A DNA stretch of 64,000 nucleotides, from assembly GCA_965603515.1 (NCBI GenBank), contig CBFDDH010000005.1:27886-91885 (forward strand), in the 5' to 3' direction. Below are positions 15,515 to 41,714 of the stretch, in pieces; within the stretch, counting starts at the first letter, position 1, and each line of letters begins with the position of its first letter. The notes beneath the pieces were generated by a model that made no database searches, was not told where the DNA came from, and saw only the letters and a program-made list of their open reading frames with translations. The position numbers were made by a program, and so were the translations under genes. The DNA comes from an uncultured bacterium (GTDB taxonomy: Bacteria; Hydrothermota; Tepidihabitantia; SM23-42).

Positions 15515-15557
15515 ATCATAACTGTAAATACATCACCAAACTAAACTCCTTTATAGA

Positions 15558-15713
15558 TTATTTCTTTTGTTCTTTGTTGGCGTCTTTCTCTTTTATAATA
15601 CGAATACTATTGGAACCGCACTTGGGGCATTGCCTTTCTATCATCTTACCTTTTTCATAAGGGTATTTATTAATTGCGCCGCATCTCAAGCACTTGAAGT
15701 CTTTTTCTTCCAT
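15558..15713 (-). CDS. 51-aa zinc-ribbon protein (CxxC-N17-CxxC). Below the ORF-track size cut-off. Last gene of the hdr operon.
   Basis: Manual translation: MEEKDFKCLRCGAINKYPYEKGKMIERQCPKCGSNSIRIIKEKDANKEQKK. GGAGG sits 6 nt upstream of the ATG (complement 15713..15711). Confidence 0.5.
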   Translation of the reverse strand: MEEKDFKCLRCGAINKYPYEKGKMIERQCPKCGSNSIRIIKEKDANKEQKK

Positions 15714-15857
15714 GCTTTAACCTCCTGCTTAGTAAATCTGGGGGCATTGCGAATAACCGAAGGAAGCATGGCAATCTCATCTTCTTAAAACAGTCGAGAT
15801 TGCTTCGTCGTCCCACCCTTCCAAGATTGGCGGGATTCCTCGCAATGACACAACCAA

Positions 15858-18335
15858 CTATTGCTTCTGCTTAAGCTTTTCCAGTTTTTGTTTTTTCTTC
15901 TCTTCTTCTTCGGTTAAAACCTTGATCGTATGTTCGATCTCCTCTTTGGTAACCTTTTTTCGTAATTCTTCGACATCCTGCATGGTTTTCTGGAATCTCT
16001 TGCCTTCTGCCGCGCTGATCCATTCAAGCAACAACCTTTCTGGACGTATCCCCAATTTTTCCAATTTATCCCAGAGCTTCTCTACCCTCTTCTGGGTCCA
16101 GCGGTTAGCATCGATGTAGTGACAGTCAACATAATGACACCCAGATACAACAACCATGGGCGCACCGTTTCTAAATGCACTGAGGATGAATTCTTCATGG
16201 ACCCGTCCGCTGCACATCGTGCGGATGAGTCGCTGGTTGGATGGATACTGTAATCGGGCTCCACCACATGTATCAGCACCTGCATATGAACACCAGTTGC
16301 AAGCAAAAACGATCACCTTATCCTGTGGGTCTTCAGTCAGATGTGCATCGATCTGGGTTATGATTTGATCGTCTGTAAAATGTTTCATCGAAAGTGCACC
16401 AAAACGACATTCAGCTGCACACGTGCCGCAGCCTTTGCATAAAGCTTCAACATAGGTGATCGTTTTATTCTTCGGATCGACCGTGAAAGCATTATAAGGA
16501 CAAACTTTCGAGCACATAGCACAGTATCGGCAGAGATCCTGATTCAAGGTTGATGTTATCGCCTCGAGTTTGACCTTACCTGCAGAAAGCAATGTTTCAG
16601 CCCGTGCTGCCGCTGCACTCGCCTGAGTAACCGAATCCTTCACATCCTTGGGCGCTTCAGCACAACCGGCAAAGTACACTCCAGTCGTAGTTGCATCAAC
16701 AGGTTTTAGTTTCGGATGTGCCTCCATAAAGAAACCGTCCGGGCTCTTGGATAGCGTAAGGAGTTTCTGCACCTCGGGCATATCAAGTCTTGGTGTCACG
16801 CCAACAGAAAGTACCATCATATCAAATTCATGTTCTTCGATTTTATTGGCCGTGGTATCCTCAACCATAACCTTTAAATCGTGTGTCTTTGGATCCTCAA
16901 TTATATCACCAGGGATACCTCTGATATATGCAACACCGGCTTCCTTGCTGCGTTTGAAAAGATCTTCAAAACCTTTACCAAATGCTCTAATATCGATGTA
17001 AAAAACTTTGGCTTCAATGTCAGGATAGTGGTCTTTCAGTAATAATGTGTCCTTGATCGTGTTCATACAACAGATATTACTGCAGTATGGTTTGCCGATC
17101 TTCTCGCACCGGGATCCGACACATTGAATAAAACCAACGGTCTTGGGTCTTTTTCTATCGGTAGGTCTGATAAAATGGCCGTCTGAAGGTCCACCTGCTG
17201 ACATAAGCCGTTCATATTCCATGCTTGTTATGACGTTTTCGTATTTTGTATAACCGTATTCATCTAATTCTGTAGGATCATACACATCCATACCAGTAGC
17301 AACGATTACCGTACCTACATCAAATTTAATAACCTCATCTTTCATGTCGTAGTCAATACATTTCTTGTCACATTTCTCAGCACATTTACCGCAGGCGATC
17401 GGATTTATGCCAAGACAGGATTCCATATCAATGATTGAAGCAGAGGGTATGGCCTGAGGGAACGGGATATAAATCGCCTTGCGACATGAGAGTCCCTGTT
17501 GATACTCGTCAGGGATGATCACCGGACAGACTTCAGCACAATCACCACATGCTGTACATTCTTCTGCGTTTACATAACGGGCTTTCTTGAGCACATTAAC
17601 ATGGAAATTCCCCACGTAACCCGAGATAGATTCTACCTGGCTATGTGTTAAGAGTGTTATGTTGGGATGTCGACCGACATCCATCATTTTCGGACCGAGT
17701 ATTCATATCGCACAATCCATAGTAGGATAGGTCTTTGCCAGCTGAGCCATTATACCACCGAGAGCTGGGTTTTTCTCAACCAGATATACTTTGTAACCAG
17801 CATCAGCAAGATCAAGACTTGATTGCATACCAGATATGCCACCACCGATAACGAGCGTTGCTTTAGTCACTGGTATTTCTGTCTCATCCTGAGCTTCGAG
17901 ATAACGAGCTCGAGCAATATAAGCTTTCATAATATCTTTTGCTTTCTTTGTCGCGGCTCCACGATCGTCCATATGAACCCAAGAACATTGTTCACGGATA
18001 TTCGCCATATCAACGAGATAAGGGTTAAGACCTACTGAAGAAACACACTCCCGAAATGTCGGCTCATGCATACGTGGCGAACATGCAGCAACAATAACAC
18101 GGTTGAGTTTTTGTTCTTTGATCGCCTTTTTTATCTCTGCTTGCCCAGGTTCAGCACACATATATCGGTTCTTTGCCGTGTATACGACATTACCGATTTC
18201 TTTAGCATCCTCGACGAGTTTGTCGACATCGACTGAACCAGCTATATTCGTACCACATTCGCACACAAAAACACCAATCCTTAAATCATCCTGCGGCACT
18301 TTAATCACCTCCTTTGTGGATAAGGTTATCCTCAA
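15858..18335 (-). CDS. hdrA: HdrA (heterodisulfide-reductase subunit A family flavoprotein) with a C-terminal MvhD domain. Selenoprotein: the in-frame TGA at 17703-17705 is read as Sec. The ORF track splits it into 17703..18335 and 15858..17687.
   Basis: Across the TGA the protein reads ...[26 protein letters not shown]. This aligns to the canonical HdrA ...[25 protein letters not shown], where Sec takes the place of the second Cys. N-terminal CxCGxNI 4Cys domain. GGGISGMQSSLDLADAG FAD motif. Multiple CxxCxxCxxxCP ferredoxin motifs. C-terminal MvhD (FACNWCSYAGAD...VVSGCHYVDCHY). Confidence 0.8.
17665..17682 (-). promoter_or_regulatory. SECIS-like hairpin in the mRNA: GGAUGUC-GGUC-GACAUCC (7-bp stem, GGUC loop), 20 nt downstream of UGA 17705..17703
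   Basis: Perfect stem. The GGUC apical loop resembles the SelB-binding loop of the E. coli fdhF SECIS. The identical 18-nt sequence occurs after the second in-frame UGA, at 25630-25647. Confidence 0.55.
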
Positions 18336-18338
18336 TCT

Positions 18339-19223
18339 TCATACTTTCACACTTCCATTTATCTTCTCCAATACTTTGTCTGCTTTTATTCGATGGGTAT
18401 GCAGACCAACCTGCTCGACAGTCAAACCCTGTGCAAGACCGAGCAGCTGGAAAAGATAAATAACCGGAATATTATAGCTCTTTCCCTTTTTACGGGATAT
18501 CATTATTTGACCTAAATCAAATGAAGAAAAACATGTCGGGCAGATCAAACCCATACAATCAGCACCACTTTTCTCGATCGATGCAAAGATCGCTTCAGTC
18601 ATTTCCAAGGGCAGTTCATCATCCATACATCCTTTTCCGCAACATAATACTTTTTCATGATGTTCAAGCGGGATTGCACCCATGGCAGTTATAAAGTCTT
18701 CAAGTATATCCGGGTAATCAGCATCATCAACATGCATAACCTGACTCGGTTTTAATATGTGACAACCATAATGAATCGCCACGGTAATTTCTTCAAGGGA
18801 TTTTTTTATTGATTTCTTTACTGCTTCGAGACCAAGATCATCTCTTATCATCTCAACGGCATGCTTTATTATTATCTTACCTTTATATTCCCGATTAATT
18901 CTCTTCAATCGTTTATTCACCTCATCTTTCAATGCTGGGTCTTCATTAAGGAGAAATTGTGCTTCTTTCAGAGTTGAGATACACCCGGAGCACATCGTAA
19001 TCAGCATATGTCCAGTCTCTTCAGCTACCGCTAAATTTCGAGTGGCCGTTACCAACCATTTCATCTTATCACGTGACTTGAAGTAAATAGGATCGGGGCA
19101 ACATGTAAAATTTTCAATATCAACAAGCTCAACACCTAATAGCGGTAAAGTGTTTCTCAGTGCCAATTCCATTTGAGGGTATTTGAGAGGCATCATACAA
19201 CCCCAGAAAGGCACGACCTTCAT
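18339..19223 (-). CDS. hdrB: HdrB-like subunit (two CCG cysteine-rich domains)
   Basis: 294 aa. CCPD...C and LCCGKGC / CPTC motifs typical of HdrB CCG domains. Confidence 0.75.
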   Translation of the reverse strand: MKVVPFWGCMMPLKYPQMELALRNTLPLLGVELVDIENFTCCPDPIYFKSRDKMKWLVTATRNLAVAEETGHMLITMCSGCISTLKEAQFLLNEDPALKDEVNKRLKRINREYKGKIIIKHAVEMIRDDLGLEAVKKSIKKSLEEITVAIHYGCHILKPSQVMHVDDADYPDILEDFITAMGAIPLEHHEKVLCCGKGCMDDELPLEMTEAIFASIEKSGADCMGLICPTCFSSFDLGQIMISRKKGKSYNIPVIYLFQLLGLAQGLTVEQVGLHTHRIKADKVLEKINGSVKV

Positions 19224-19273
19224 GATCGTACCACGGCTTTCTTTTCACATAATTCAATCAACACAGCAGCTCC

Positions 19274-19795
19274 TTATTTATCGATCGTTTCATCGGCTGG
19301 TGTTACTTCTTTATCTTCAAGGATTGTATTTAACTCATCGATCGGGATCGTCTTCAGTACTGGAAGCCCTAATTGCTCTCTTCTTCTGTTGATTGCTGAA
19401 GATACTGTCACACTCATGCCGGTTTTCGCAATATTATCTGAAAGCTTGGCCAAGTTGACAGGTGCAGTTCCTTTTTCTACGGCCATGTTCTTGAGGGCAA
19501 CAATCACCTCAATAGGACGCACGTCCTGCGGGCATCTTTCATAACAGGAATAGCAATTCGTACAGAGCCATATCGCTGAATCCTGACCCAGGAGTTCTTC
19601 TTCCATACCCAACAATGCCTTTAATAATATTTTTCGCGGGTTGAACTCTTTTGAAAACCTTGCGGTTGGACAGACTGCAACACAGGCACTACATTGATAG
19701 CAATAGTTATGATGCTTTCCGCCGGATACCTTATTTAGCTTTTCGCGAAATCGGTAATTTACTACTATTTTATCTTTTGCCATTTTAGCCACCAT
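19274..19795 (-). CDS. hdrC: HdrC-like 4Fe-4S dicluster subunit
   Basis: 173 aa. CYQCSACVAVCP and CTNCYSCYERCP. Confidence 0.75.
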   Translation of the reverse strand: MVAKMAKDKIVVNYRFREKLNKVSGGKHHNYCYQCSACVAVCPTARFSKEFNPRKILLKALLGMEEELLGQDSAIWLCTNCYSCYERCPQDVRPIEVIVALKNMAVEKGTAPVNLAKLSDNIAKTGMSVTVSSAINRRREQLGLPVLKTIPIDELNTILEDKEVTPADETIDK

Positions 19796-20927
19796 CTAAC
19801 AAATCTGCAATAAGCGTAACCAATTGGATGGTTTCAATCTTCACATCCTCACCTACTTTATCATCCTTCATCGCACAATTAAAGTGAATCTCACATTTTG
19901 GGCAAGCCAGCACCAAAAGGTCTGCTCCAGTCTGTTTTGCCTCTTTCAAACGTGCAAGTTGTATACTCTTCGAATATGTAGAACAGTTAATCCATGCACT
20001 GACACCACAACATATTGCACTCTTTCTGCTTCTTGCCATTTCTTTCAATTCCAATTGTGGAACCGAAGTAATGGCTTTTCTTGGTTCATCATAAATACCA
20101 AGATGCCTTCCAAGTCTGCAGGGATCCTGATAAGAAACGGTTTTGGCGAGTTCCTTAAGTTTTATTTTTCCTTGATCGATCGCTTCAGCTATGACTTCAG
20201 TAATATGTTGCACTTCAAAATTGCATTCAAAATATTTGGGATAATCAATTTTGAATGTCCGATATCCCTCAGGACACGAAAAAATAATCTTTTTTACCCC
20301 TACTTTATTGATTTCATTAATATTGTATTGCGCCAGTCTTTTGAAATTATCCAGTTCTCCACCCCATAAGAGATCATGTCCACAACAGCGTTCATTGGGT
20401 AACACTACTGGTGTGATACCTAAATGATTGAGAATTTTTATGCTGGCTTTGGCAGCTTTTATTGTATTGATCTCGATATCTTTAAAAAGGACATCAAAAT
20501 AAGGCAAGCATCCAACGAAATATAGTGTCTCACCTGATCCGGCAACCTTCAAATCATTATCGATCCAATCCATGCGTTTCTGTTGAAGATCTGGTGTCGA
20601 CATAATACGCATCAATGATTGTGCAGCACCACCATGCGAACAGATCGCTTCTTCACCGATTTTCTGTGCTTCCTGACGGGTAGCAAGGGTCAGATCGATA
20701 TAGTCGATATTGGCCGGACATCTTTCATCACAGAGTTTGCATGTCAAACAAGCCCAGATATTCTTGTCCTTTAATAACTCAAGCTGACCACTACGAATTG
20801 CTTTATTAACTAATATGCGTGGCGAATAGCCATGATTAAATCGTGATATTGGACATGAACCCGTACATTTACCGCATTCAAGACATAAATAAGCTCTGGA
20901 TTCTTTTATCGCCTTTTTAATACTCAC
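19785..20927 (-). CDS. HdrD-like fused iron-sulfur (HdrC-type) + two-CCG-domain (HdrB-type) protein
   Basis: 380 aa. CLECGKCTGSCP and CLTCKLCDERCP, followed by CCGHD... and CCG-type motifs (ICCGVSAW, CPKCEIHFNC). Confidence 0.7.
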   Translation of the reverse strand: MSIKKAIKESRAYLCLECGKCTGSCPISRFNHGYSPRILVNKAIRSGQLELLKDKNIWACLTCKLCDERCPANIDYIDLTLATRQEAQKIGEEAICSHGGAAQSLMRIMSTPDLQQKRMDWIDNDLKVAGSGETLYFVGCLPYFDVLFKDIEINTIKAAKASIKILNHLGITPVVLPNERCCGHDLLWGGELDNFKRLAQYNINEINKVGVKKIIFSCPEGYRTFKIDYPKYFECNFEVQHITEVIAEAIDQGKIKLKELAKTVSYQDPCRLGRHLGIYDEPRKAITSVPQLELKEMARSRKSAICCGVSAWINCSTYSKSIQLARLKEAKQTGADLLVLACPKCEIHFNCAMKDDKVGEDVKIETIQLVTLIADLLDGG

Positions 20928-21385
20928 TTTACATCCTCAACCTGATTATCTGATACTTTAATGACCTTCTTAATGGAACTCGGACCAAGTTTTCTGATCG
21001 TCGCGGTGAATGCTTGAGCAACCTTGGCAAACTTTGTGGCTTCGGCCGATGAAATCCAATCAAGCATGAGTCTTTCTTTTTCAATACCGATCATCGCAGT
21101 AAGTTGCTCAGTGATCTTGTGAACATCAGCTGCCTTTTTTGCACCAAACATATAATGACAATCTTCAAAATGGCATGTGGCAACCAAAACACCATCAGCA
21201 CCCAATTCAAATGCCTTCAAAACCAACCCCGGGGTCACTCTGCCACCGCACATAACCCGCACAATGCGGATATTTGTAGGATATTGAAGTCGCGAAACAC
21301 CCGCACCATCGGCAGCTGGATAAGAACACCAATTGCAGCAGAATGCGACTATCTTTGGCTCAAAATTCTCCTTTGGTAAATCCAT
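20924..21385 (-). CDS. mvhD: Stand-alone MvhD (methyl-viologen-reducing hydrogenase delta subunit-like) [2Fe-2S] electron-transfer protein
   Basis: 153 aa. FCCNWCSYPAADGAG...RVMCGGRV...VATCHFEDCHY. Confidence 0.8.
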   Translation of the reverse strand: MDLPKENFEPKIVAFCCNWCSYPAADGAGVSRLQYPTNIRIVRVMCGGRVTPGLVLKAFELGADGVLVATCHFEDCHYMFGAKKAADVHKITEQLTAMIGIEKERLMLDWISSAEATKFAKVAQAFTATIRKLGPSSIKKVIKVSDNQVEDVK

Positions 21386-21431
21386 TATTTAATCATTCAA
21401 CCTTTCAACCATTTTGTAACCATTCAACTAT

Positions 21432-24400
21432 TTAACCAAATAATGCTTCCAGCTGTGCTTCGATTTGTTCGCTCATGAAATGTTTCAAGTCAATTGCACC
21501 GGTCGGGCAAGCAGGTACGCAAGTTCCACAACCTTTACACAGTGCTTCATTGACCTGGGCGACAAAAATACCTTTTTCTTTTTCAATAAGTTCAATTGCA
21601 TGGAATTCACAGACTTCTGCACACCGACCACAACCGCGGCAATAGACCTCATCAACGATCGATGTTATCGGTGCCAGACTTATTTTATCACGGCTCAGCA
21701 GTCCAGACACTTTCGATGCAACTGCGGATGCCTGAGATATTGAATCCCCAATGTCTTGCGGGAATTGACAACAACCACATAAAAACACTCCTTCAACTGT
21801 AGTTTCAACCGGACCGAATTTCGAATGACGTTCCAGGAAGAATTTATCTGGACCCCTTGGTACTTTTAATAACTCAGAAAGGCGCAAAGAATCCTCAGCA
21901 GGAACCATGCCTACGGAAAGCACAATGAGGTCGACTGGCACACTGATCTCAGCATTGAGGTCCACTGACGAAACCGTTATCTGGTTAGCCATATCAGTAC
22001 CGGAAATCTCCGGTTCATCCTCATACGGTAAAAAGAGCACACCTAATTCCCGTGCTTTCCGATACATCCGTTCGGCACCTTTTGAATAAACCCTGACGCC
22101 GCGGTTTAATATCGCGACATCAATGCCTTTTTCTTTAAGATATATCGCCTCTTTTATTGCGGCTTGACAACAGTATCGAGAACATCCTGGATTACCAGCA
22201 TCCCCTCTCGACCCAACGCACTGTACAAAGGCAACTGATTTGATATTCTTAATATCACCCTTCAGGATCTTCTCTTCCAATTCCATATTGGTTATCACAT
22301 TCTTATATCGACTATAACCATATCTTTGGGCTGGATCGTAAAGACTAGCCCCAGTAGCTAAAACAATAGCACCTACTGTAAATTCGGTTTCTTTTCCTTT
22401 AATGTTCAGTTTTACCTGAAAATTCCCAACATAACCAGTGACATCTGTCAGCTCTGCAGAAATTAAGAATTCGCCACCTGCTTTGGTGAATTCATCGATC
22501 AATTTAGTGATAATGTCTTTACCCGGCTTGAAACTTGGATAAATACTCGATAAATCACGCACCAAACCGCCGGGAGCTTCATTCTTCTCAATGATCTTAA
22601 CCTTAAAGCCACGCAAAAGCAGGTCAAGTCCACACCTTAACCCGGTTATGCCACCACCGATTATTGCAACATCCCGGTTAACTGACAGTTCTTTCAAGTA
22701 GAGCGGTTTGAGTTCTCTGACACGCGCGACTGACATTCTTACCAATTCCTTGGCCTTGGCAGTTGCTTTTTTAGGTTCTTTCTGGTGCACCCACGAACAT
22801 TGATTTCTAATATTCGCGATATCGAAAAGGTAAGGATTTAGACCAATCATAGTCAACGAATCCTGAAAACTCGGTTCATGTGTTTTAGGCGTACAGGCAG
22901 CGACCACGACTCTATTGAGTTTGTTTTCGGCGATACGCTCCTGCAGCTTACGTTGGTCAGTTTCTGAACAGGCGAAAGTATAATCTTCCGCAAAAACCAC
23001 CCCCGGCAAAGTCTTGGCATATTCTACTACTGACTTCACATCAACGACCTTTGAAATATTGGGTCCACAATGGCAGACAAAGACACCGACTCTTGGCGGT
23101 CCGGAAATATCGACTTGTTCGATATCTGGCTCTTCAATCTCCAGTTCTTGTCCTTTGAGAAAAAGCGATGCTTTAACCGCTGCTCCGCTGGCTTCAGCGA
23201 TCGAGTCAGTAATGTCTTTGGGCCCGGTTGCACATCCGCAGACCAAAATTCCTTGTTTCGTGGATTCCAGAGGTTTAATTGCTGGCTCTGCATTCTTGAA
23301 AAAGCCATCTTGGTCAGTTTCAACACCAAGCACATCGGCCAGTTCCTGGCAACCATTGGGTGGGATCAAAGCTGAAGCTAAACAGACAGCGTCAAAAACC
23401 ATTTTTGATGAGTATCCCTGGTCGTCCTCATAATGAATGATCAAATCACCATTTTCATCTTCAATGACCTTGGATGGCTTTCCTTTAATATATTTCACGC
23501 CTTTTTCTACTGAACGATTATAGAATTCTTCAAAACCCTTACCAAATGCCCTTATATCAATATAGAACACAGTGATTTCAATATCTGGATAGTGTTCTTT
23601 CAATACCAGACTGTCTTTTATCGTATTCATACAGCATATGCGACTACAATAATTAATATCCCGGCGCATATTACGTGAACCAACACATTGAATAAATGCA
23701 AAACGGATAGGTCCTTTTCTTTCTTTGTCAAGAGCAAGTTCACCATTAGTTGGACCATCTTCACTCATTATTCTTTCCAGCTCAAAAGAGGTATAGATAT
23801 TTTTGAAACGTTTATAACCATATTCACTCGCTTCTTTAGGATCGAGATAATCGATTCCCGTCGTCACAACGATCGAGCCAATATCAAGATCAATGAATTC
23901 ATCTTCCATGTCATGAACAATAGCTTGAGGCTCACAGGCCTTTACACACTCCAAGCACTCAGCACACCCTGCGCAGTTGAGACAGCGGTCAGCTTCTTTT
24001 TTTGCTTGTAGTGCAGAAAATCCCAGCGAGACTTCATCAAAACTCTTTTTGGACTTTTCCAGATCAAGAACTGGCATTTTTTTCCGAGCGGTTGTCTCGA
24101 GACCATCCGGTATATCGATGTCTTCATCCACAACGCGCGCCGGTTTTTTCTCTCTTCCTTCTTTAAGATCAACTCCTCTAATGAATCTATCTATTGATTC
24201 AGCAGCTTCTTTCCCCGCTGCAATTGCCTCGATTACGGTTGCTGGTCCGGTCACAACATCACCACCAGCAAAAACGCCAGCAATAGTTGTTTGCAGTGTA
24301 TCTGGGTCAACTTTGAATGTTCCCCAGCGTGTTAACTCAAATTGATTTTCCTTGTTTAGAAATGAAACATCGACAGCTTGACCAATTGCCATAATAACCA

Positions 24401-25835
24401 TATCAAGATCTATGGTGAATTCAGAACCTTCAATTGGTACCGGTCTTCTTCTTCCCGAGGCATCTGGTTCACCAAGTTGCATCTTTACACACTCTATCCC
24501 GGTAACCTTGCCATCTTCACCAAAAACCTTGGTTGGCGCCGCCAAGAAATGGATTTTAATCCCTTCCTTCTCAGCTTCCAGCACTTCTTCTTCATTAGCC
24601 GGCATCTCTCGCTGTGACCGGCGATATACAATAAAAACTTCTTCTGCACCTAAACGCAAAGCAGTACGGGCAGCATCAATCGCGGAATCCCCACCGCCAA
24701 TCACAGCAACTTTTTTACCAACCGTGGTCTTATCGTCCATAATCGTTTTTTTAAGAAACTCGACACAGAATTCCACCCCCTTTAAATCCTCACCTTCGAT
24801 CCCCATGGATTTTTCCTTTGCAGCGCCTACGCCAAGGAAGATTGCCTTAAAATCTTGATCGAAGATATCTTGAATTCCGAAATCTTTACCAAGCGCAATA
24901 CCGGTTTTAATCTCAACACCCCAGCTCTTTATATAATCTAAATCGCGTTTAAGGGATTTTTCAGGTAACCTGAATCTGGGGATTGCCCAGTATAGGAGTC
25001 CTCCAGGATGATCAGTGGCTTCATAGACGGTTGAGCAGTACCCTTGTTTAGCAAGAAAATAGGCAGCCGACAAGCCAGCAGGTCCAGCACCAATAATGGC
25101 GATTTTTTCTTTGGTCAATTTTGGCATTGCCGCTGGTTCATTATCTACTGGTTCTTGGTCAGCAATGAAACGTTTTAACTGTGCTATTGCTAAAGGTTCA
25201 TCAATATCTTTACGTTTACACTCTGATTCACAAGGGTGAGTGCATACTCTTCCGCAAACTGATGGAAAGGGATTGTCACGTCTTTCTAAATCCAATGCTT
25301 CCTGTGATTTACCTTGAGATATAAGAGCAACATAGCCCTGCACATTAACCCCAGCCGGACAAGCATACCGGCACGGTGACCATCCTTTTTTATCAATAAT
25401 GAATTTATTCGGAACGGCTTGCGGATACTGACGGTATATTGCCTCATGCTTCGACAAATCCAGTTCAAACTCGTTGTCGAGTTTCACTGGACAAACTGAA
25501 GGACATTCACCACAGCCAGTACACTTATTCCAGTCAACATAAGTGGATTTGTGTTTGATCTTCACTTTAAAATTTGGAGCTTCCCCGTCGACTTGAACCA
25601 CTTCGCTGTTTGTGAAAAGTTCAATGTTCGGATGTCGACCGACATCCATTAACCGAGGACCGAGGATTCAACCAGTGCAATCCATCGAGGTGAAGATCTT
25701 ATGGATTTGTGAAGTCCGACCGCCAAGACATGGACCATGCTCAATAAGATAAACCTTAAAATCAGCATGTGCCAAATCCAAAGCTGATTGGATACCAGCC
25801 ACCCCTCCACCGATTACTAATGCTCCTTTTTGCAT
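21432..25835 (-). CDS. HdrL-like giant flavoprotein: HdrA N-terminal FAD module (with Sec), an NfnB/GltD-like NAD(P)H:ferredoxin module, a second HdrA-like module, and ferredoxin domains. The ORF track starts it at 25649, after the Sec codon.
   Basis: Real start is ATG at complement 25835..25833: [56 protein letters not shown](TGA 25670..25668)[14 protein letters not shown]. GltD-like CRYACPAG...[13 protein letters not shown] plus [19 protein letters not shown] and [16 protein letters not shown] Rossmann folds. Second HdrA core [19 protein letters not shown]...[12 protein letters not shown]-terminal 2x[4Fe-4S]. Confidence 0.75.
25630..25647 (-). promoter_or_regulatory. SECIS-like hairpin GGAUGUC-GGUC-GACAUCC, 20 nt downstream of UGA 25670..25668
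   Basis: Identical at nucleotide level to the hairpin at 17665-17682, with the same spacing from the UGA. Confidence 0.55.
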
Positions 25836-25866
25836 TATTTTTATCTATTCCTTTCTTAGATTAAAA

Positions 25867-26424
25867 TTATTGTGGATCCTTTTGTTTTTTTAGAAGTTCA
25901 AGACCAAAATTATAGCCGTGTTTAAAAGCCTTTATGTTTAAATCCAGAGCTTTTTCAGGAACTGAGCCAGGCAAAGCCTTTTCCATGGCTTCGCATGTCA
26001 CTATCCCGGTTATCGCAGTGAAGAACCCCAACATAACAACATTAGCCACAATTTTCTTGCCGAGCTGTTCAGCAAAACGCGTTGCCGGAATAAGATGGAC
26101 CTTAATATTCCCCCGGGGTGACTTGTGCTTCACTAAATTTTCGTCAACGAGTAATATACCGTTTTCTTTGAGTTCCGGTTCGAACTTATCATAACCCTCC
26201 TGGGACATGACAACCAAAACATCAGAATTAGTGACATATGGATATAGTACTTTGGTTTCTGATACCACGAGCTGAGAGCTGCAAGCACCACCCCTTGCTT
26301 CCGGGCCAAAGGATTGACTCATTGTACCATATTTGTTATCATAAAGCGAAGCTGCCTTACCGACAATTATCCCGGATCTTATAATACCTTGACCACCGTA
26401 ACCGGCGAATCTAATCTCCGCCAT
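25867..26424 (-). CDS. 2-oxoacid:ferredoxin oxidoreductase gamma subunit
   Basis: Likely start MAEIRFAGYGGQGIIRSGIIVGKAA (GGAGG 5 nt upstream), not the longer track ORF. Gamma/PorC-like fold. Confidence 0.7.
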   Translation of the reverse strand: MAEIRFAGYGGQGIIRSGIIVGKAASLYDNKYGTMSQSFGPEARGGACSSQLVVSETKVLYPYVTNSDVLVVMSQEGYDKFEPELKENGILLVDENLVKHKSPRGNIKVHLIPATRFAEQLGKKIVANVVMLGFFTAITGIVTCEAMEKALPGSVPEKALDLNIKAFKHGYNFGLELLKKQKDPQ

Positions 26425-27196
26425 TTTTGCCTCCGGGATCCGCTCCTGATCTGATTCCATGTGGGGTGAATTTCTCTCCCAACACACTGCTGAGCTGAGC
26501 ATTATATTGGTCGATAAATGTTGGTCTTTCTTTGCTTGTGAATTTGCCCACGATAATTTTGCTATCCGGTTTGATCCCCACATTCTTCGGGTCTTCACTA
26601 TTCCTTATCTCCGAGTTATCATAGTAAAAACGTACCAGATCAATATTCACCTTGCTAATACTGGTATAATAGTCAGGGCCTGGCGCCAGAATTTCAATAA
26701 CTGACAGACCTTTTTTGCCCAATGCCTCGGCAATCGAAGCGGCGAGTTCCTCAGTATGCAAAGCTGTCCAACGTGCGGTATATATTGCACTGCACGAGTT
26801 TCCAAGATGTGGGATATTGAATGGTTCTTCAAAGGTTGAATAGGGTGAGAATTTCTGAGCCGCAGAGGGTACTGATTTACCGGCGATTTTTCTGTACACA
26901 AAATTATTAATACATATCACCGTAAGTTCCATATTTCTTCGACTGCCATGCACAAAGTGATTGCCACCGATCGTCATAAGGTCACCTGCGAAGGGGACAA
27001 CTTTGAGAGCAGGGTTGGCTAATTTTAGACCAGTTCCAAAAGCAATGGCTCGACCGCGTGTCGTATGGAAATAATCAAAACCGAACCGTTTGACTGTCTC
27101 TGGTTCAAACAAAATGTCTGAAGGCACACAAACCTGGTCAGGTTTCACCCCAGCCTTTTCAAGGGCTTGGGCAAATGTCGTGATTATTTCATTCAT
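26411..27196 (-). CDS. 2-oxoacid:ferredoxin oxidoreductase beta subunit (TPP-binding), copy 2
   Basis: GDLMTIGGNHFVHGSRRN (TPP Mg-binding GDG-like). 261 aa. Confidence 0.8.
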   Translation of the reverse strand: MNEIITTFAQALEKAGVKPDQVCVPSDILFEPETVKRFGFDYFHTTRGRAIAFGTGLKLANPALKVVPFAGDLMTIGGNHFVHGSRRNMELTVICINNFVYRKIAGKSVPSAAQKFSPYSTFEEPFNIPHLGNSCSAIYTARWTALHTEELAASIAEALGKKGLSVIEILAPGPDYYTSISKVNIDLVRFYYDNSEIRNSEDPKNVGIKPDSKIIVGKFTSKERPTFIDQYNAQLSSVLGEKFTPHGIRSGADPGGKNGGD

Positions 27197-28434
27197 TCCT
27201 TTGATTTGGGACCTCCTCCGAAGACTGATATCTCCAATCTTGTTTTGAATTCAATGACCTCTTCGATTTTTCGCTCTTCCTTCGCTACTGATACAATTGC
27301 ATCACATATGTCATCCGGGATATGAACACCAGCACCACCATGCGGGACGAGCACAACATTTGCATTACCGTGACAGCACCTTGCAACATCAAAAACAACC
27401 TGTCCGTAATTGATCTCAGGAACTACAAGCGCCTTTACTTTCTTGGCTATTTCAGTGATCCGTTCATCGGGGAATGGCCAGACAGTAACGAGTCTTAGAC
27501 TACCAACTTTTATCCCTCTTTCTCTCGCCATTTCGATACCGCGTACTGCAACCCTCGATGAGATACCATAAGATACGACGACTACATCTGCATCATCAAT
27601 CTGTTCTTCTTTTAACTCAATGATTTTGTCTTTATTGCACTTTATTTTATCTACTAATCTTCTCACATACTTCAGTTTATAATGCTCATCGTCAACTGGG
27701 TAACCGCGTTCATCATGGAGCCTTCCGGAAATGTATAGCTTGTGACCTGATCCGGCCTTAACCATTCTTGGGACAAGGTCTTCATCCGGTTTGAATGGCA
27801 GGTACTCATCAGGTGGACCTGTATACCACCGCCTTGGTTCAATCTCGATTTCTTCAGCTGGCGGGATAACGACTTTCTCGGTCATATGACCAACGCATTC
27901 ATCAGACATTATCATAACTGGACAACGATATTTTTCTGCCAGATTAAAGGCCTTTATTGTGTAATCAAACAGTTCCTGAGGAGATTCCGGCGCTATGACG
28001 ATGAGCCCATAATCACCGTGTGAGCCCCAACGCGCCTGCATCATATCTGCTTGCCCGGTCTTAGTTGGAACCCCAGTTGAAGGACCACCGCGCTGGATAT
28101 TAAGCAGTACAAACGGCGTCTCAAGCATTGCCCCAAATCCGACCGTCTCCATCATCAAGGAATAACCAGGTCCAGATGTTATGGTCATCGTCTTCGCGCC
28201 TGCCCATGCCCCGCCGACGATTGCTGATACTGAAGCAAGTTCATCTTCCATTTGAATGAACAAGGCACCGTTTTTTGGGGCGATACGCGCAAAAGCCTCA
28301 GCCGCTTCAGTTGATGGTGTAATCGGATAACCGGCGACGAACTTACACCCCGCAGCAAGCGCCCCATAACCAGAGGCAACATCACCATCAATGTAGTAGA
28401 CGCCGCTGAGCACATCTCTTTGATCAGCCTTCAC
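27193..28434 (-). CDS. 2-oxoacid:ferredoxin oxidoreductase alpha subunit, copy 2
   Basis: 413 aa. YPITPSTE, GGPSTGVPTKTGQADMMQARWGSHGD motifs of KorA/PorA. Confidence 0.85.
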   Translation of the reverse strand: MKADQRDVLSGVYYIDGDVASGYGALAAGCKFVAGYPITPSTEAAEAFARIAPKNGALFIQMEDELASVSAIVGGAWAGAKTMTITSGPGYSLMMETVGFGAMLETPFVLLNIQRGGPSTGVPTKTGQADMMQARWGSHGDYGLIVIAPESPQELFDYTIKAFNLAEKYRCPVMIMSDECVGHMTEKVVIPPAEEIEIEPRRWYTGPPDEYLPFKPDEDLVPRMVKAGSGHKLYISGRLHDERGYPVDDEHYKLKYVRRLVDKIKCNKDKIIELKEEQIDDADVVVVSYGISSRVAVRGIEMARERGIKVGSLRLVTVWPFPDERITEIAKKVKALVVPEINYGQVVFDVARCCHGNANVVLVPHGGAGVHIPDDICDAIVSVAKEERKIEEVIEFKTRLEISVFGGGPKSKE

Positions 28435-28526
28435 CCGTCAGACCTCCTTTCAACCATCTTTCAATATAACGCTTACCTATTCCAAACGTTAAATGTTTTT
28501 TCTCTGTACCGCTATCTTCATAAGGT

Positions 28527-29420
28527 CTAACCGGGTTCATTTTCACCATCCTTGATCTCGGATAACCACTCGTTATAGCGATCTGTATAACTCGGTCTTT
28601 CTCGGTCGACGAACTTACCCATTATAATCTTTCCCTGTAAAGCTATATCAAGATTCTTGGTATCCTCATCATGACGTATTTCCGTATTATCATGGTAGAA
28701 ACGCATCATATCAAGGCCATCCCCTAATCGGTTGATCCTTGAGTAATATTGGGCACATGGCGATATAGCTTCAACTACAGAAAATCCTTTTTTATTGAGT
28801 GCTTCAACAAAAGAATTCATAAGCCGACGGACATGAAGCGTGGTCCAACGCGCCACATACACAGCACCTGAAGATTCTGCCAAATATGGTATATTAAAAG
28901 GCGGCTCAACACACCCAAAAGGACAGGTTGTGGCATACGCAGTGAGCGGTGTTGTCGGAGCAACCTGACCACCAGTCATCGCGTAGATGAAGTTGTTTAC
29001 GCATATGACGAGCATATCGATATTTCTTCGCGCTGCATGGATAAAATGATTTCCACCGATCGCAATAAGATCACCATCGCCAGAGAAAACCACGACTTTC
29101 ATGTCCGGGTTGGCAACTTTAATACCCGTAGCAAAAGCGATCGCCCGCCCATGAGTAGTGTGGAATGAATCGAGCTTCACATACCCGGCAACCCTGCCTG
29201 TACAACCAATACCAGAAACAATAGCTACCTTATTAAGATCTATCTCGGCTTTTTCAAGCGCCGCTGCAAACGCAGTAACTGCTAAACCAATTCCACAACC
29301 CGGGCACCAAATATGTGGTATCCTGTCCATGCGAAGCACATTTTCCATCGGATGGATTATGTCCATACCTGATCGACCAGATTGGGTCTCCTCTTGCTGC
29401 ATTGTTTTTGGTATTTCCAT
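28527..29420 (-). CDS. 2-oxoacid:ferredoxin oxidoreductase beta subunit, copy 1
   Basis: 297 aa. WCPGCG, GDGDLIAIGGNHFIHAARRN. Confidence 0.8.
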   Translation of the reverse strand: MEIPKTMQQEETQSGRSGMDIIHPMENVLRMDRIPHIWCPGCGIGLAVTAFAAALEKAEIDLNKVAIVSGIGCTGRVAGYVKLDSFHTTHGRAIAFATGIKVANPDMKVVVFSGDGDLIAIGGNHFIHAARRNIDMLVICVNNFIYAMTGGQVAPTTPLTAYATTCPFGCVEPPFNIPYLAESSGAVYVARWTTLHVRRLMNSFVEALNKKGFSVVEAISPCAQYYSRINRLGDGLDMMRFYHDNTEIRHDEDTKNLDIALQGKIIMGKFVDRERPSYTDRYNEWLSEIKDGENEPG

Positions 29421-29431
29421 TCTACACTCCC

Positions 29432-30649
29432 TTATCTAAGCTCAACGATCCGGTCTATGATTCTATCATCTTGGACCGCTTGATTTATCGCCCTGAGGAT
29501 ATCCTCGGTGTCTTCAACACCTTTTCCACCATGTGGGATGAAGAACACATTTGATTTACCATAACTACACCGTTCGACTTCCAGAACAACCTGTCCGAAA
29601 TTCATTTCTGGCACGACAAATGCATTAACTTTCCCGGCGAGTTCGGCTACGCGCTTCCCGGGAAATGGCCACACCGTTACCAATTTTAGACTTCCAACCT
29701 TTAACCCTAAACCCCTTGCTTGTTCCATCGCTTTCAATGCAGCCCTTGATGATACTCCATATGAAACAATAACAATATCAGCGTCTTCAATATTGGCTTC
29801 CTGCACTTCAATAATTTCATCCGTATAATCCCGTATTTTCTTTACCAGTGGATGCACATTGTACTCCTGGCATTCTTCATTCATGATCGGATAGCCACGA
29901 TCATCATGGGTCAAACCAGTCACGTGGAATTTATACCCCTGACCTATATCAACCATGCGTGGGATTAAATCTTCATCTCTTTTAAATGGCAAATAACTAC
30001 CTTTCGGACCATCGAAATATCGGCGCGGTTCAAGTGTGATGTCTTCCGCGCGCGGAATCACCACCTCTTCCTGCAAATGGGCGACGTATTCGTCGGACAT
30101 CACAGCCACGGGGATACGAAAGCGTTCTGAAAAATTAAATGCTTTTATTGTAAAATCAAACATCTCCTGTGAAGAACTCGGCGCAAGCGCAATCAACTCA
30201 TAATCGCCATGTGAACCCCAGCGTGCCTGCATCATATCTCCTTGAGACGGCTGGCTGGGCAACCCAAGACCCGGACCGACCCTTTGAACATCAACGATTA
30301 CACAGGGTGTCTCCAGCATTATGCCAAGCCCGAGATGTTCCATCATCAGTGATAATCCAGGGCCAGAAGTCACGGTCATTGATTTCTTACCAGTCCATGA
30401 AGCGCCGATAACTGCCGCGAGGCTTGAAATCTCATCCTCCATCTGAATAAAGGTTGCGCCCGCCTTTTTCGCTCGTTGAAGAAACCTTTCACTGACCTCC
30501 AGTGCTGGGGCAATAGGATAAACCCCTAAAAACCGACATCCTGCGGCCAATGCGCCTTCTGCACAAGCACAATTGCCGCTAAGATTATATGTACCAGTCA
30601 AAACACCACTTGGATCTGCCTTCACCCCGTTTGACCTCCTTTTAACCAT
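29432..30649 (-). CDS. 2-oxoacid:ferredoxin oxidoreductase alpha subunit, copy 1
   Basis: 405 aa. YPIAPALE, VGPGLGLPSQPSQGDMMQARWGSHGD. Confidence 0.85.
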   Translation of the reverse strand: MVKRRSNGVKADPSGVLTGTYNLSGNCACAEGALAAGCRFLGVYPIAPALEVSERFLQRAKKAGATFIQMEDEISSLAAVIGASWTGKKSMTVTSGPGLSLMMEHLGLGIMLETPCVIVDVQRVGPGLGLPSQPSQGDMMQARWGSHGDYELIALAPSSSQEMFDFTIKAFNFSERFRIPVAVMSDEYVAHLQEEVVIPRAEDITLEPRRYFDGPKGSYLPFKRDEDLIPRMVDIGQGYKFHVTGLTHDDRGYPIMNEECQEYNVHPLVKKIRDYTDEIIEVQEANIEDADIVIVSYGVSSRAALKAMEQARGLGLKVGSLKLVTVWPFPGKRVAELAGKVNAFVVPEMNFGQVVLEVERCSYGKSNVFFIPHGGKGVEDTEDILRAINQAVQDDRIIDRIVELR

Positions 30650-30731
30650 CTAATAACATAACATTTGCTTATCATAAACTTCAAACATTTTTTCTCTGTG
30701 CTCCCGTCTTTATAATATCTAACGGGATTCA

Positions 30732-31028
30732 TTATTTCCCTTCCCCGGAATTCACTCCAACAGGATTTTCGTCTTTTTTTAACGTCACATAGATCGCAAA
30801 TTCTGGACATAACATCTCACAAAGATGACACTCAACACAATCATCAGGATTCGTGATCTTGGGTGGATGATATCCTTTGGTATTGAACTCCTCGGACATT
30901 TCAAAAACATCTTTGGGACAGTACTCAACACAAAAGCTACATCCTTTACACCGTTCTTCTATTATATGAATTTCACCACACGGAATCTTAATTTCATCCA
31001 AATCAAAAGGTTTTCGCCAAAGTTTCAT
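30732..31028 (-). CDS. 2-oxoacid:ferredoxin oxidoreductase delta subunit (2x[4Fe-4S] ferredoxin)
   Basis: 98 aa. CKGCSFCVEYCP and CVECHLCEMLCP. AAGGAG RBS. Confidence 0.8.
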   Translation of the reverse strand: MKLWRKPFDLDEIKIPCGEIHIIEERCKGCSFCVEYCPKDVFEMSEEFNTKGYHPPKITNPDDCVECHLCEMLCPEFAIYVTLKKDENPVGVNSGEGK

Positions 31029-31114
31029 ATCAACTCCTTAATGATCATTTTAGCCGAGACATCTATAATAGATATTTTGTCTTCCCTAAGCTCCCCAACT
31101 CCCATTCCACATGC

Positions 31115-31142
31115 ATTATAGTAAAATAGGCTTAAATGTCAA
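31115..31142 (-). promoter_or_regulatory. Near-consensus sigma70 promoter TTGACA-N16-TATAAT driving the OFOR-Hdr operon
   Basis: Minus strand: TTGACA = complement 31142..31137. TATAAT = complement 31120..31115. About 80-nt leader with AAGGAG RBS. The leader contains the palindrome ATCTATAATAGAT (31059-31071). Confidence 0.6.
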
Positions 31143-31153
31143 GAACAAGTAAC

Positions 31154-31819
31154 TTATTTCTGTTTCTCGGCATGGTGTTTAATAACACGCGCTTGAGCGA
31201 TATATATGACATCTTCGCAAATATTCGTTGCCAAATCGGCAATGCGTTCAAGATTCTTGGCAACCAAGAGAAGTGGTATGGCCGAACCAATTTTATCTGG
31301 CTGTTCAAGCATGTAAGTAAGCAGTATCCTCATTGTCTCATCCCTCATTTCATCCACCACGTTATCTCTTTCACAGACTTGCTGAGCCATTTCCGCATCA
31401 TTGTTCATAAAACTCTTGACGCTGTCATTGAGCATCTTTTTTACCTCAACGACCATTGACCAGATATTACTTACCGGCTTGATACGCGGTTGTTCAATCA
31501 AAAAAGCGACTGAACCGGTAATATTCACCGCATGATCACCCATTCTTTCCAAATCATTGTTCATCTTAATGACCCCGATCAAGAATCTTAAATCAGTACC
31601 TACTGGCTGGTGGCGTGCAATAAGTTCGACGCACTGATCCTCAATAGCAATCTCGAAACGATCGATTCTATGATCGATTTCTTTGACTTCCGACGCCATC
31701 TTGAGGTCTCTATTCTTAAGCGCTTCCAGCGCTTTGGTAATCGATTCGTCAACCATTGAGGCCATTTCTAAAAGGTTCTTTTTCACCTTTTGCAGTTCTT
31801 CATCAAAATGGCGATCCAT
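31154..31819 (-). CDS. phoU: Phosphate transport system regulator PhoU
   Basis: 221 aa, two PhoU repeats (…DxxID…). Confidence 0.85.
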   Translation of the reverse strand: MDRHFDEELQKVKKNLLEMASMVDESITKALEALKNRDLKMASEVKEIDHRIDRFEIAIEDQCVELIARHQPVGTDLRFLIGVIKMNNDLERMGDHAVNITGSVAFLIEQPRIKPVSNIWSMVVEVKKMLNDSVKSFMNNDAEMAQQVCERDNVVDEMRDETMRILLTYMLEQPDKIGSAIPLLLVAKNLERIADLATNICEDVIYIAQARVIKHHAEKQK

Positions 31820-31873
31820 TATACCCCCTTACTTTTTAGCCATTAGCAATTAGCCACTGGCTATCAGCAAAAC

Positions 31874-32623
31874 TCATCCAAATCTCCCTGAAATGTAATC
31901 AAACGTACGTTTGTCTGATGGGTTGGTAAAAATCTTCTTCGCACTATCGAACTCAATCAATTCACCAAGAAGCATGAAACCAACCTCATCAGCAATACGC
32001 GCAGCTTGTTGCATATTGTGAGTTACTATTATGATCGTATATTTTCGTTTTAGTTCCAGCATTAGTTCCTCGATCTTACCAGTAGCAATAGGATCGAGGG
32101 AAGAGCAGGGTTCATCCATAAGTAGTATTTCCGGCTCAACTGCGAGAAGTCTGGCAATACATAGTCTCTGCTGTTTTTCTGCCGAAAGGCTTAGTGCCGA
32201 TTCTCTTAGCCGACCTTTCAATACACCAAACAGATCAACTGCAGCAAGTGAACGTTCAACAATGTCCCGCAATGTTTTCTTATCAGTAATACCCCAAACC
32301 CTTGGACCATAAGCGATATTGTCAAATATCGATAATGGAAAAGCATTGGGTCGTTGAAAGACCATACCTACTTTTTTGCGCAATAGAATAAGGTCGCAGA
32401 TCGATGAATGTATGTCCTCACGATCAATCAACACCGCACCGGTGATTCTTGCACCCCGGATCAAATCGTTCATCCTATTGAAAACCCTGAGCAAAGTTGA
32501 TTTACCACAACCCGACGGCCCAATAATTCCAGTAATCAAGTTTTCTTTGATCGATAGATCGATATCTTTCAAAGCGTGGAAACTCCCGTAGTAAAGATTC
32601 AAATTCGCTGTTTTAACGATCAT
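31874..32623 (-). CDS. pstB: Phosphate ABC transporter ATP-binding protein PstB (second tandem copy)
   Basis: GPSGCGKST Walker A, LSGGQQQRL-like signature (LSAEKQQRL), 249 aa. Confidence 0.85.
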   Translation of the reverse strand: MIVKTANLNLYYGSFHALKDIDLSIKENLITGIIGPSGCGKSTLLRVFNRMNDLIRGARITGAVLIDREDIHSSICDLILLRKKVGMVFQRPNAFPLSIFDNIAYGPRVWGITDKKTLRDIVERSLAAVDLFGVLKGRLRESALSLSAEKQQRLCIARLLAVEPEILLMDEPCSSLDPIATGKIEELMLELKRKYTIIIVTHNMQQAARIADEVGFMLLGELIEFDSAKKIFTNPSDKRTFDYISGRFG

Positions 32624-41705: not shown

Positions 41706-41714
41706 GAGGCGATC

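Follow-up and report, generated by a model that had tools for sequence, protein, structure and literature searches.

Several gene sets in which Hdr proteins stand near 2-oxoacid:ferredoxin oxidoreductases (OFORs) have been described. HdrL was defined in Desulfobacterium autotrophicum (PMC2702500), and Syntrophobacter fumaroxidans has an abundant HdrABC/HdrL cluster (Sfum_0819-0824) as well as a HdrAL/POR cluster (Sfum_0012-0018) that was undetected in the proteome (PMC5947623). In Ca. Endoriftia persephone, the hdrA and hdrBC genes of an Hdr-Flx set enclose KorABCD, and tfrAB and genes of the reductive tricarboxylic acid (rTCA) cycle belong to the same cluster (PMC11636981; PMC13147460), and the genes and intergenic regions of this cluster are co-expressed (PMC11636981). 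A further cluster, from Cloacimonadota (Ca. Celaenobacter), combines thiol:fumarate reductase (TFR), 2-oxoglutarate:ferredoxin oxidoreductase (OGOR), fumarase, succinyl-CoA synthetase, Mvh and Hdr genes, and its authors link it to the reductive TCA cycle (PMC8542988). For candidate division WOR-3, a 2025 survey of 181 metagenome-assembled genomes (MAGs) has korABCD and hdrABC as separate entries and says nothing of a linkage (PMC12542636). Here we analyse a 64-kb stretch of bacterial DNA from contig CBFDDH010000005.1 (the window), in which a row of thirteen co-oriented open reading frames (ORFs) at 15558-31142 of the minus strand joins a four-subunit OFOR to an HdrL/HdrABC/MvhD module.

The host is a WOR-3 bacterium, to judge from its closest protein relatives: the relatives of HdrL at 79-90% identity come from uncultured bacteria and, where these are named, from candidate division WOR-3, and the relatives of β2 are named WOR-3 or Ca. 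Stahlbacteria. Read from 31142 to 15558, the row (ORF listing; Pfam, NCBIfam) has the order δ-α1-β1-α2-β2-γ, HdrL with selenocysteine (Sec), MvhD, HdrD-like protein, HdrC, HdrB, HdrA-MvhD with Sec, and a zinc-ribbon ORF. Its features, including the two hairpins that resemble a selenocysteine insertion sequence (SECIS), are as follows.

31115-31142, minus strand: σ70-type promoter TTGACA-16 nt-TATAAT, 12/12 match; the same hexamers stand at L006:1881-1908 of a related locus
30732-31028, minus strand: OFOR δ, 98 aa, 2×[4Fe-4S]; Pfam Fer4/Fer4_7, two CxxCxxCxxxC motifs
29432-30649, minus strand: OFOR α1, divergent copy; POR_N and PFOR_II, NF006412 at 497.7 bits against a cutoff of 411
28527-29420, minus strand: OFOR β1, canonical; TPP_enzyme_C, aligns with the β subunit of H. 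pylori OorDABC (8ys5_C, E 3e-58)
27193-28434, minus strand: OFOR α2, canonical; POR_N and PFOR_II, NF006412 at 510 bits against a cutoff of 411
26411-27196, minus strand: OFOR β2, cofactor-less paralogue; alignments to 8ys5_C, 5b48_B and relatives
25867-26427, minus strand: OFOR γ, 186 aa; Pfam POR over the full domain length, E 1.3e-34, NF006323 at 203 bits against a cutoff of 235
21432-25835, minus strand: HdrL, 1467 aa, Sec at codon 56; translation, Pfam, PDB matches
25630-25647, minus strand: SECIS-like hairpin behind the HdrL UGA; comparison of Sec and Cys homologues
20924-21385, minus strand: MvhD/FlpD-type [2Fe-2S] protein, 153 aa; Pfam FlpD, E 2.8e-48
19785-20927, minus strand: HdrD-like protein, 380 aa, 2×[4Fe-4S] and two CCG domains; Pfam CCG twice, Fer4_8
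19274-19795, minus strand: HdrC, 173 aa, 2×[4Fe-4S]; motifs, TIGR03290 at 113.6 bits, below the cutoff of 160
18339-19223, minus strand: HdrB, 294 aa; Pfam CCG twice, TIGR03288 at 285 bits, below the cutoff of 345
15858-18335, minus strand: HdrA-MvhD fusion, 825 aa, Sec at codon 211; Pfam FlpD at residues 674-790, Fer4 and FAD domains
17665-17682, minus strand: SECIS-like hairpin behind the HdrA-MvhD UGA; comparison of Sec and Cys homologues
15558-15713, minus strand: zinc-ribbon or rubredoxin-like ORF, 51 aa, CxxCG…CPxCG; weak Zn_ribbon_8 match

We have compared the OFOR proteins with characterized enzymes, and they have the make-up of the four-subunit (Kor/Oor/Vor) type, with POR_N and PFOR_II domains in α, a thiamine diphosphate (ThDP) domain in β, the POR domain in γ, and 2×[4Fe-4S] in δ. 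Both α copies pass the NF006412 cutoff. The best specific matches of β1, α and δ are OGOR/Oor models, with H. pylori OorDABC as the best structure, and the equivalog cutoffs of the OGOR models are missed in all three (NCBIfam; β 251 vs 364, α 339 vs 579, δ 71.7 vs 125 for OGOR_delta).

The two α-β pairs are not equivalent. In the family alignment, β1 has the CPGCG, GIGC and SPC cysteines and the GDGD…NN ThDP motif intact, and α2 carries YPITPSTE and QRGGPSTGVPT. YPITPSTE and QRGGPSTG are invariant among the relatives of α2, all single-copy ones included. α1 reads YPIAPAL instead of YPITPST and RVGPGLGLPS instead of RGGPSTGxPT; its orthologues read YPI[AVM]P and Q[RGMS]VGPGLG, with the Arg replaced by G, M or S in relatives. 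β2 has a shorter N-terminus than β1 and no CxxC pair, and shows SDILF for GIGC, GD for GDGD and APG for SPC. Among 121 representatives of the β2 family (at least 62% identity), each of the four cysteines is absent throughout and GDGD is nowhere complete, and the family is well conserved despite this loss. The fold is retained, since the AlphaFold2 model of β2 (pLDDT 82.6) matches OFOR β structures with TM scores of 0.61-0.67. The corresponding Thr256 and Arg344 of StOFOR hold the substrate carboxylate and cannot be dispensed with; the CxGC loop binds the cluster, and ThDP is located between the α and β of a single protomer (PMC5020499). Checked for these catalytic residues, α2 and β1 pass while α1 and β2 fail. 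In addition, the single α of the outgroups resembles α2 and their single β resembles β1.

One may ask whether the order δ-α-β-α-β-γ represents two active OFORs with different substrates, which would have δ and γ in common in the way that POR and VOR have γ in common in Pyrococcus. The presence of two α-β pairs with a single δ and a single γ agrees with this idea, which is nevertheless very improbable, as all 121 members of the β2 family are without the four cluster cysteines and have no more than half of the ThDP-Mg motif, and as α1 is without the Thr of YPITP and without GGPSTG, and its orthologues without the Arg, the two residues that are essential in StOFOR (PMC5020499). Since β2 and α1 are without cofactor and substrate residues, there is probably one active protomer, and the plural "oxidoreductases" of an earlier reading made from the letters of the window (the sequence-only reading) is doubtful. 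The parsimonious interpretation is that α2/β1 is probably the live protomer and α1/β2 the dead one. The WOR-3 OFOR would then be an asymmetric α1β1α2β2γδ enzyme that pairs a live protomer with a dead one of structural function. To our knowledge, no OFOR has been described that includes a cofactor-less α/β pair of paralogues, and α1/β2 would be an unusual pseudo-enzyme case in the ThDP/Fe-S enzyme family.

HdrL is a tandem HdrA with an NfnB/GltD-like module (FAD, NAD(P)H and 2×[4Fe-4S] sites) inserted into its first half, at about residues 150-620. PDB matches agree with this composition (HdrA 5odc in four stretches, NfnB 4ylf/5jca over residues 152-554), and four GxGxxG dinucleotide-binding motifs as well as a VYRRSxxEMPA motif are found. 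From what is established for GltD and NfnB, the VYRRS motif suggests NADPH for this module. The protein has the HdrA–GltD/NfnB fusion that characterizes HdrL, with mvhD 46 nt downstream, and homologues 42-47% identical occur in many phyla. The rest of the module is complete too, with FAD and Cys/Sec ligands in HdrA, 2×[4Fe-4S] in HdrC, MvhD, and two complete CCG motifs (C-x31-CC-x35-CxxC) in HdrB. Neither HdrB (285 vs 345) nor HdrC (114 vs 160) reaches the equivalog cutoff of CoM-S-S-CoB reductase, and the top NCBIfam match of the HdrD-like protein is TfrB at 146 bits, below the cutoff of 385. No solved structure with the HdrL architecture or with an OFOR-Hdr assembly was found in a PDB search.

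Both HdrA-type proteins are selenoproteins by the usual bacterial signs, i.e., a UGA at a Cys position followed by a hairpin. The in-frame TGA codons (25668-25670 in HdrL, 17703-17705 in HdrA-MvhD) take the place of the second Cys in the HdrA motif DCxxC/U-ILxPK, and 23 nt behind each of them there is a GGAUGUC-GGUC-GACAUCC hairpin with the loop GGUC. Behind the TGA of 14 Sec-type homologues, which come from WOR-3, Calditrichia, Planctomycetota and a Thermodesulfobacteriota MAG, this hairpin is found again, whereas Cys-type homologues encode the same peptide with different codons and have no hairpin. It is paired in 92.9% of cells, with one compensatory change, and the folding energy of both regions is not better than that of shuffled sequences (z about -0.2). 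As covariation is minimal and folding unexceptional, the case for SECIS elements rests on synonymous sites, which do not vary among the Sec forms and vary freely among the Cys forms. In the protein database, the entries of close HdrL homologues all break off at the same TGA codon. No sel gene or tRNA-Sec was found in the window; selB adjoins hdrL in a related locus (L002).

The conservation of the OFOR-hdr gene order had been set beforehand as a test, and the row is kept in WOR-3 relatives at 80-84% HdrL identity. The entire row from α1 through the zinc-ribbon ORF is present in SM23_42 and two metagenome contigs (L003-L005), and HdrL is 80% identical to its homologues in SM23_42 and CP070795.1. 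In L006 the row is present as well, with pstB-phoU and δ upstream and a few inserted genes. The more distant L002 (HdrL 65% identical) has HdrA-MvhD, SelB, HdrL and MvhD, and no OFOR. In SM23_42, a second Hdr set lies directly upstream of α1 (L003:1-5027), comprising a 649-aa HdrA, MvhD, an HdrC-like protein, a CCG protein similar to HdrB/SdhE, an FeS protein of 252 aa and a TfrA-like fumarate reductase flavoprotein of 551 aa. The flavoprotein and the FeS protein are immediately upstream of α1, preceded by HdrA-MvhD-HdrC-HdrB; the top NCBIfam match of the flavoprotein is TfrA, at 309 bits and below its cutoff. No δ gene occurs within 10 kb of the OFOR genes of SM23_42.

Inserts are seen within the hdr rows of relatives (L006:11799-12125 and 14717-15427; L003:20215-20601), namely ORFs of the 23S_rRNA_IVP family and a DsbD_2 membrane protein between HdrC and HdrB, so the order tolerates insertions. 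What looked like a vestigial, structural OFOR in CP070795.1 (L001; half of α2 with β2 and γ by HdrL) is an artefact: this single 1.9-Mb record has a 100-N scaffold gap inside α2 (L001:7780-7879), which makes automatic gene calls show a truncated OFOR.

Beyond WOR-3, the linkage was followed from both of its ends. For the HdrL-centred survey, species-representative genomes were scanned with an HdrL alignment and then by tblastn with all window proteins. HdrL with MvhD, with or without HdrCB/HdrA, is widespread (Desulfobacterota, Chloroflexota, Acidobacteriota, Bacillota, archaea and others), and in this survey an OFOR stands beside the HdrL-type gene only in L060 (Calditrichia), L073 (Planctomycetaceae) and L084 (Phycisphaerae). 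L072, the contig of which is cut, probably has an OFOR too. The three loci share the order δ-α-β-γ, tandem HdrA without the NfnB insert, MvhD, HdrD-like protein, HdrA-MvhD, zinc-ribbon ORF, HdrC, HdrB, and they have one canonical α-β pair and Sec in both HdrA proteins. As the flanks of L084 are unrelated, the cluster is self-contained, and such compact clusters, e.g., this 12-kb one from Phycisphaerae (L084:6336-18377), are candidates for expression.

For the OFOR-centred survey, metagenome contigs were scanned with an α2 alignment, and loci with at least 3 kb on both sides were regarded as informative. HdrA-type neighbours are present in 8/8 loci where α is at least 60% identical to α2, in 0/4 at 58-60%, and in 3/12 below 58%. 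A TfrA-like flavoprotein with a 252-aa FeS protein accompanies five of the eight closest. One contig (L096) has the order HdrC-HdrB-δαβγ-HdrA-MvhD-two Fer4-FlxA-like (NAD_binding_1 and DHODB_Fe-S)-FeS-TfrA-like, and many metagenome contigs share the linkage of OFOR, HdrA, MvhD and HdrBC. By the OFOR-centred and HdrL-centred comparisons, OFOR, HdrA, MvhD and HdrBC form the conserved core, and the NfnB-like insert, Flx and TfrA are interchangeable accessories. One OFOR clade is in this way systematically tied to HdrA-type bifurcation modules in several phyla, with three interchangeable mid-/high-potential accessories, and the hypothesis made for the Riftia symbiont is thereby broadened to a widespread, modular system.

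Two details of the Calditrichia locus may be added. δ and α appear to lie in one frame with no stop between them (L060:6531-7954) and may be a δ-α fusion, and a second αβγ set is found on the opposite strand 3 kb away (L060:1126-3673).

Reductive carboxylation of an acyl-CoA to a 2-oxoacid requires electrons near -500 mV, and their supply from NAD(P)H is a central question of anaerobic carbon fixation and anabolism. Tentatively, and with confidence a little short of even, we read the OFOR–hdr row as a coupled HdrA-type bifurcating system in which NAD(P)H would be the donor, a disulfide the high-potential acceptor, and the OFOR a dedicated low-potential partner. The row would encode one functionally coupled cytoplasmic redox system, which may be physically assembled, with HdrL, MvhD, the HdrD-like protein, HdrA-MvhD and HdrBC as the bifurcating core. 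The NAD(P)H/NAD(P)+ couple would enter at the NfnB/GltD-like module in HdrL, HdrB and the HdrD-like protein would act on a putative disulfide/dithiol couple at their CCG sites, and the 2-oxoacid/acyl-CoA + CO2 couple would be handled by the OGOR-like OFOR, in place of free ferredoxin. NAD(P)H electrons would thus be split into a downhill branch to the disulfide and an uphill branch to the OFOR, which would act as a 2-oxoacid synthase, probably a 2-oxoglutarate synthase. In related clusters, the disulfide may be regenerated by the TfrA-like thiol:fumarate reductase, with one fumarate reduced per succinyl-CoA carboxylated. The bifurcating direction is preferred because, from the known Tfr, Hdr and Kor reactions, thiol:fumarate reductase makes a disulfide, and only a disulfide-reducing Hdr closes the loop. 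The sequence-only reading had framed the route as 2-oxoacid oxidation, and the TfrA-like fumarate reductases of related clusters better fit the reductive, 2-oxoacid synthase direction.

Several observations weigh against this proposal. The OGOR-specific NCBIfam cutoffs are missed, no TfrA-like, TCA or rTCA gene is in the window, and no OFOR–Hdr fusion protein that would prove contact was found. The Planctomycetota-type cluster is without an obvious mid-potential donor module, so its OFOR may be the electron source, which favours the oxidative direction. In addition, δ, the usual ferredoxin-docking module, is present in the window, and free ferredoxin could therefore still be the link; the lack of δ near the OFOR genes of SM23_42 speaks for the proposal. 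A stronger form of it, in which an asymmetric OFOR is docked on the pseudo-dimeric, Sec-containing HdrL as a hard-wired supercomplex and electrons of the HdrA flavin reach ThDP without free ferredoxin, seems doubtful to us. If true, NAD(P)H would drive a 2-oxoacid synthase (or its reverse) that needs no ferredoxin, and this OFOR would be the first of which one half is a pseudo-enzyme.

The same coupled system may instead run oxidatively, with the OFOR oxidising a 2-oxoacid, and we consider this rather unlikely though a serious contender. Its electrons would either be confurcated with those of thiol oxidation into 2 NAD(P)H (reverse Flx-Hdr logic), or flow downhill to disulfide and NAD(P)+, and in the latter event they would make the system an iron-sulfur counterpart of the 2-oxoacid dehydrogenase complex. 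The potentials allow for it, as the mean of about -500 mV for the 2-oxoacid and about -140 mV for the heterodisulfide is that of NAD(P)H. It also agrees with the Phycisphaerae-type cluster, which encodes the OFOR as its only donor, with the absence of fumarate reductase and rTCA genes from the window, with the description of WOR-3 mostly as anaerobic heterotrophs (PMC12542636), and with the reading of the S. fumaroxidans Hdr complexes as confurcating (PMC5947623). On the other hand, clusters with a TfrA-like fumarate reductase presumably could not regenerate the dithiol in that way, and both the model and the co-expression of the closest described cluster concern reductive rTCA flux (PMC11636981). 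Less probable still, and in our view unlikely, is that the row holds co-regulated neighbours that work as separate enzymes, where an ordinary OFOR reduces soluble ferredoxin and HdrL/HdrABC uses the same pool without dedicated wiring. The OFOR does have a normal ferredoxin-like δ, OFOR–Hdr fusions were not seen, about 76 of 80 HdrL loci in other phyla are without an adjacent OFOR, and many related OFORs are without an Hdr neighbour. However, the linkage belongs to one particular OFOR clade and is kept in at least three phyla despite rearranged gene order, Kor stands between hdrA and hdrBC in one architecture (L096; PMC11636981), SM23_42 manages without δ near its OFOR genes, and a dead α1/β2 protomer should have a role other than catalysis.

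The layout of the row fits one operon, and its co-transcription is what we infer from this layout. The TTGACA-16-TATAAT sequence (31142-31115) is the sole 12/12 match in 17.7 kb (14300-32000), where promoter-like matches overall are as many as expected by chance from shuffled sequence. In L006, identical hexamers occur at the homologous site between phoU and δ with an unrelated spacer, and their preservation beside a divergent spacer argues for function. Four junctions overlap (α2/β2, β2/γ, MvhD/HdrD-like, HdrD-like/HdrC), and the remaining ones span 3 to 144 nt. The sequence-only reading was correct on the gene identities, the Sec codons, the NfnB/GltD-like module in HdrL and the operon-like layout, as Pfam, NCBIfam, PDB matches and translations agree. 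It had put all gaps at 46 nt or less, which applies to HdrL/MvhD (46 nt) and γ/HdrL (31 nt, 25836-25866) and is wrong for δ/α1 (82 nt), β1/α2 (92 nt), HdrC/HdrB (50 nt) and HdrA/zinc-ribbon (144 nt). The δ/α1 gap becomes 106 nt when counted from the GTG at 30625, most likely the start of α1, which has a AAAGGAGG ribosome-binding site upstream. No terminator-like site was found on the coding strand in the intergenic gaps. That internal promoters in the gaps of 82-144 nt drive the hdr genes or the second α-β pair independently is quite improbable. The gaps of 92, 50 and 144 nt and weak promoter-like matches of 9-10/12 inside the row, e.g., 28492-28463, could be taken for it, but such matches are no commoner than in shuffled sequence, the γ/HdrL junction is short and terminator-free, and the gene order is kept in relatives. 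Moreover, functional coupling would survive internal promoters.

Some of these gaps hold further sequence features. The HdrA/zinc-ribbon spacer contains the inverted pair CATTGCGA(A/G)(T/G)AA at 15745-15756 and 15836-15847, and the 12-nt inverted repeat CATTGCGARKAA in this 144-nt spacer was rejected as a functional candidate, being not enriched in the window and folding no better than shuffles. The leaders of α1 (30626-30731) and α2 (28435-28526), both on the minus strand, are clearly alike, with the shared pattern …ACAGAGAAAAAA…GTTT…AGATGGTT(A/G)AAAGGAGGTC…ACGG(G)GTG, even though the two proteins are only about 55% identical. L006 has the start-codon-proximal part only, and L003, L088 and L089 have nothing in common with it. 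This likeness could reflect gene conversion or a conserved translational or regulatory leader.

At the other end of the row, the 51-aa ORF (15558-15713) has rubredoxin-like knuckles CLRCG … CPKCG at a spacing of 17 residues, and it is kept behind HdrA-MvhD in WOR-3 and Planctomycetota-type clusters; the loci that have it there include L072, L084 and L106. A ROK kinase gene 43 nt downstream of the row was considered as a member of the system and excluded for its lack of conservation among relatives. Elsewhere, the window has a housekeeping character (pstSCAB-phoU, uvrA, purH, α2-macroglobulin, cargo of the type IX secretion system (T9SS), and others). Directly upstream of the promoter, a pstSCA-pstB-pstB-phoU operon has two adjacent PstB-type ABC ATPase genes (31874-33363; 249 and 247 aa). 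A bacterial α2-macroglobulin of 1891 aa that is convergent on the row end and two Por_Secre_tail (T9SS) proteins are encoded at 8619-14294 and 40212-45509, and the latter two fit a lineage related to the Fibrobacteres–Chlorobi–Bacteroidetes (FCB) group such as WOR-3. An Rfam search of the window returned tRNA-Ala alone, and no hydrogenase, fumarate reductase, TfrA-like, Flx, TCA/rTCA or sulfur-metabolism genes were found in the 64 kb.

Compared with the known systems, the hdr half of the row has the HdrL–MvhD–FeS protein–HdrCBA order of the S. fumaroxidans and D. autotrophicum type, in which HdrL is likewise an HdrA/GltD-type fusion with mvhD behind it, and often with Sec. An HdrA/L set beside a pyruvate:ferredoxin oxidoreductase has already been noted in S. 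fumaroxidans (PMC5947623). The differences are that the HdrABC/HdrL and HdrAL/POR clusters are separate in that organism and joined in the window, that both species are sulfate reducers with DsrC as the presumed disulfide, and that degenerate OFOR subunits have not been reported for them. The HdrA, HdrB (CCG), HdrC and MvhD proteins are also homologous to those of the methanogen MvhADG–HdrABC complex (5odc, 8rvu). Methanothermobacter, with TfrAB and 2-oxoglutarate synthase, combines a mid-potential donor, a disulfide and a low-potential acceptor for 2-oxoacid synthesis. Methanogens, however, have ferredoxin as a free intermediate and no linkage among these genes, while the window is without hydrogenase, CoM/CoB are not expected in WOR-3, and HdrB and HdrC stay below their equivalog cutoffs. 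As to the OFOR, α2, β1, γ and δ match H. pylori OorDABC (8ys5), StOFOR and MmOGOR subunit by subunit in all cofactor motifs, whereas known OFORs are symmetric, (αβγδ)2 or (αβ)2, and the window has a paralogous pair of which one is cofactor-less. With the Cloacimonadota cluster, the related gene sets share the combination of OGOR, Hdr and thiol:fumarate reductase; there the donor is H2 via Mvh, other TCA enzymes are clustered, and HdrL is not described.

The closest counterpart, compared by its published architecture, is Ca. Endoriftia. There too a four-subunit OGOR-type OFOR lies among hdrA, mvhD/flxD and hdrBC with an NAD(P)H input, an adjacency that the window shows in γ lying next to HdrL, and the proposed flavin-based bifurcation follows the same logic of feeding the OFOR and a high-potential branch. 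The Endoriftia-type architecture is found in L096, L113 and L120, which hold the closest non-WOR-3 relatives of the window α. In contrast to the FlxABC of Endoriftia, the window has its NAD(P)H module inside HdrL, where an NfnB/GltD-like insert interrupts the tandem HdrA. It also has one more HdrD-like protein and a second HdrA-MvhD, the α-β pair is duplicated with one protomer apparently dead, both HdrA-type proteins are selenoproteins, the host phylum is WOR-3, and no FlxABC, tfrAB, acl or other rTCA gene is in the 64-kb window. Our literature search on HdrL or HdrA with an OFOR, or with a thiol:fumarate reductase link, returned nothing more specific than these reports. The sequence-only reading spoke of a previously uncharacterised route, which holds in the biochemical sense, while the gene linkage of OFOR/Kor with Hdr had been reported before (PMC11636981, PMC13147460, PMC5947623, PMC8542988). 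Overall, OFOR–Hdr coupling has already been proposed, and what these comparisons indicate as new is an HdrL-type, Sec-containing variant in WOR-3 with a pseudo-protomer OFOR.

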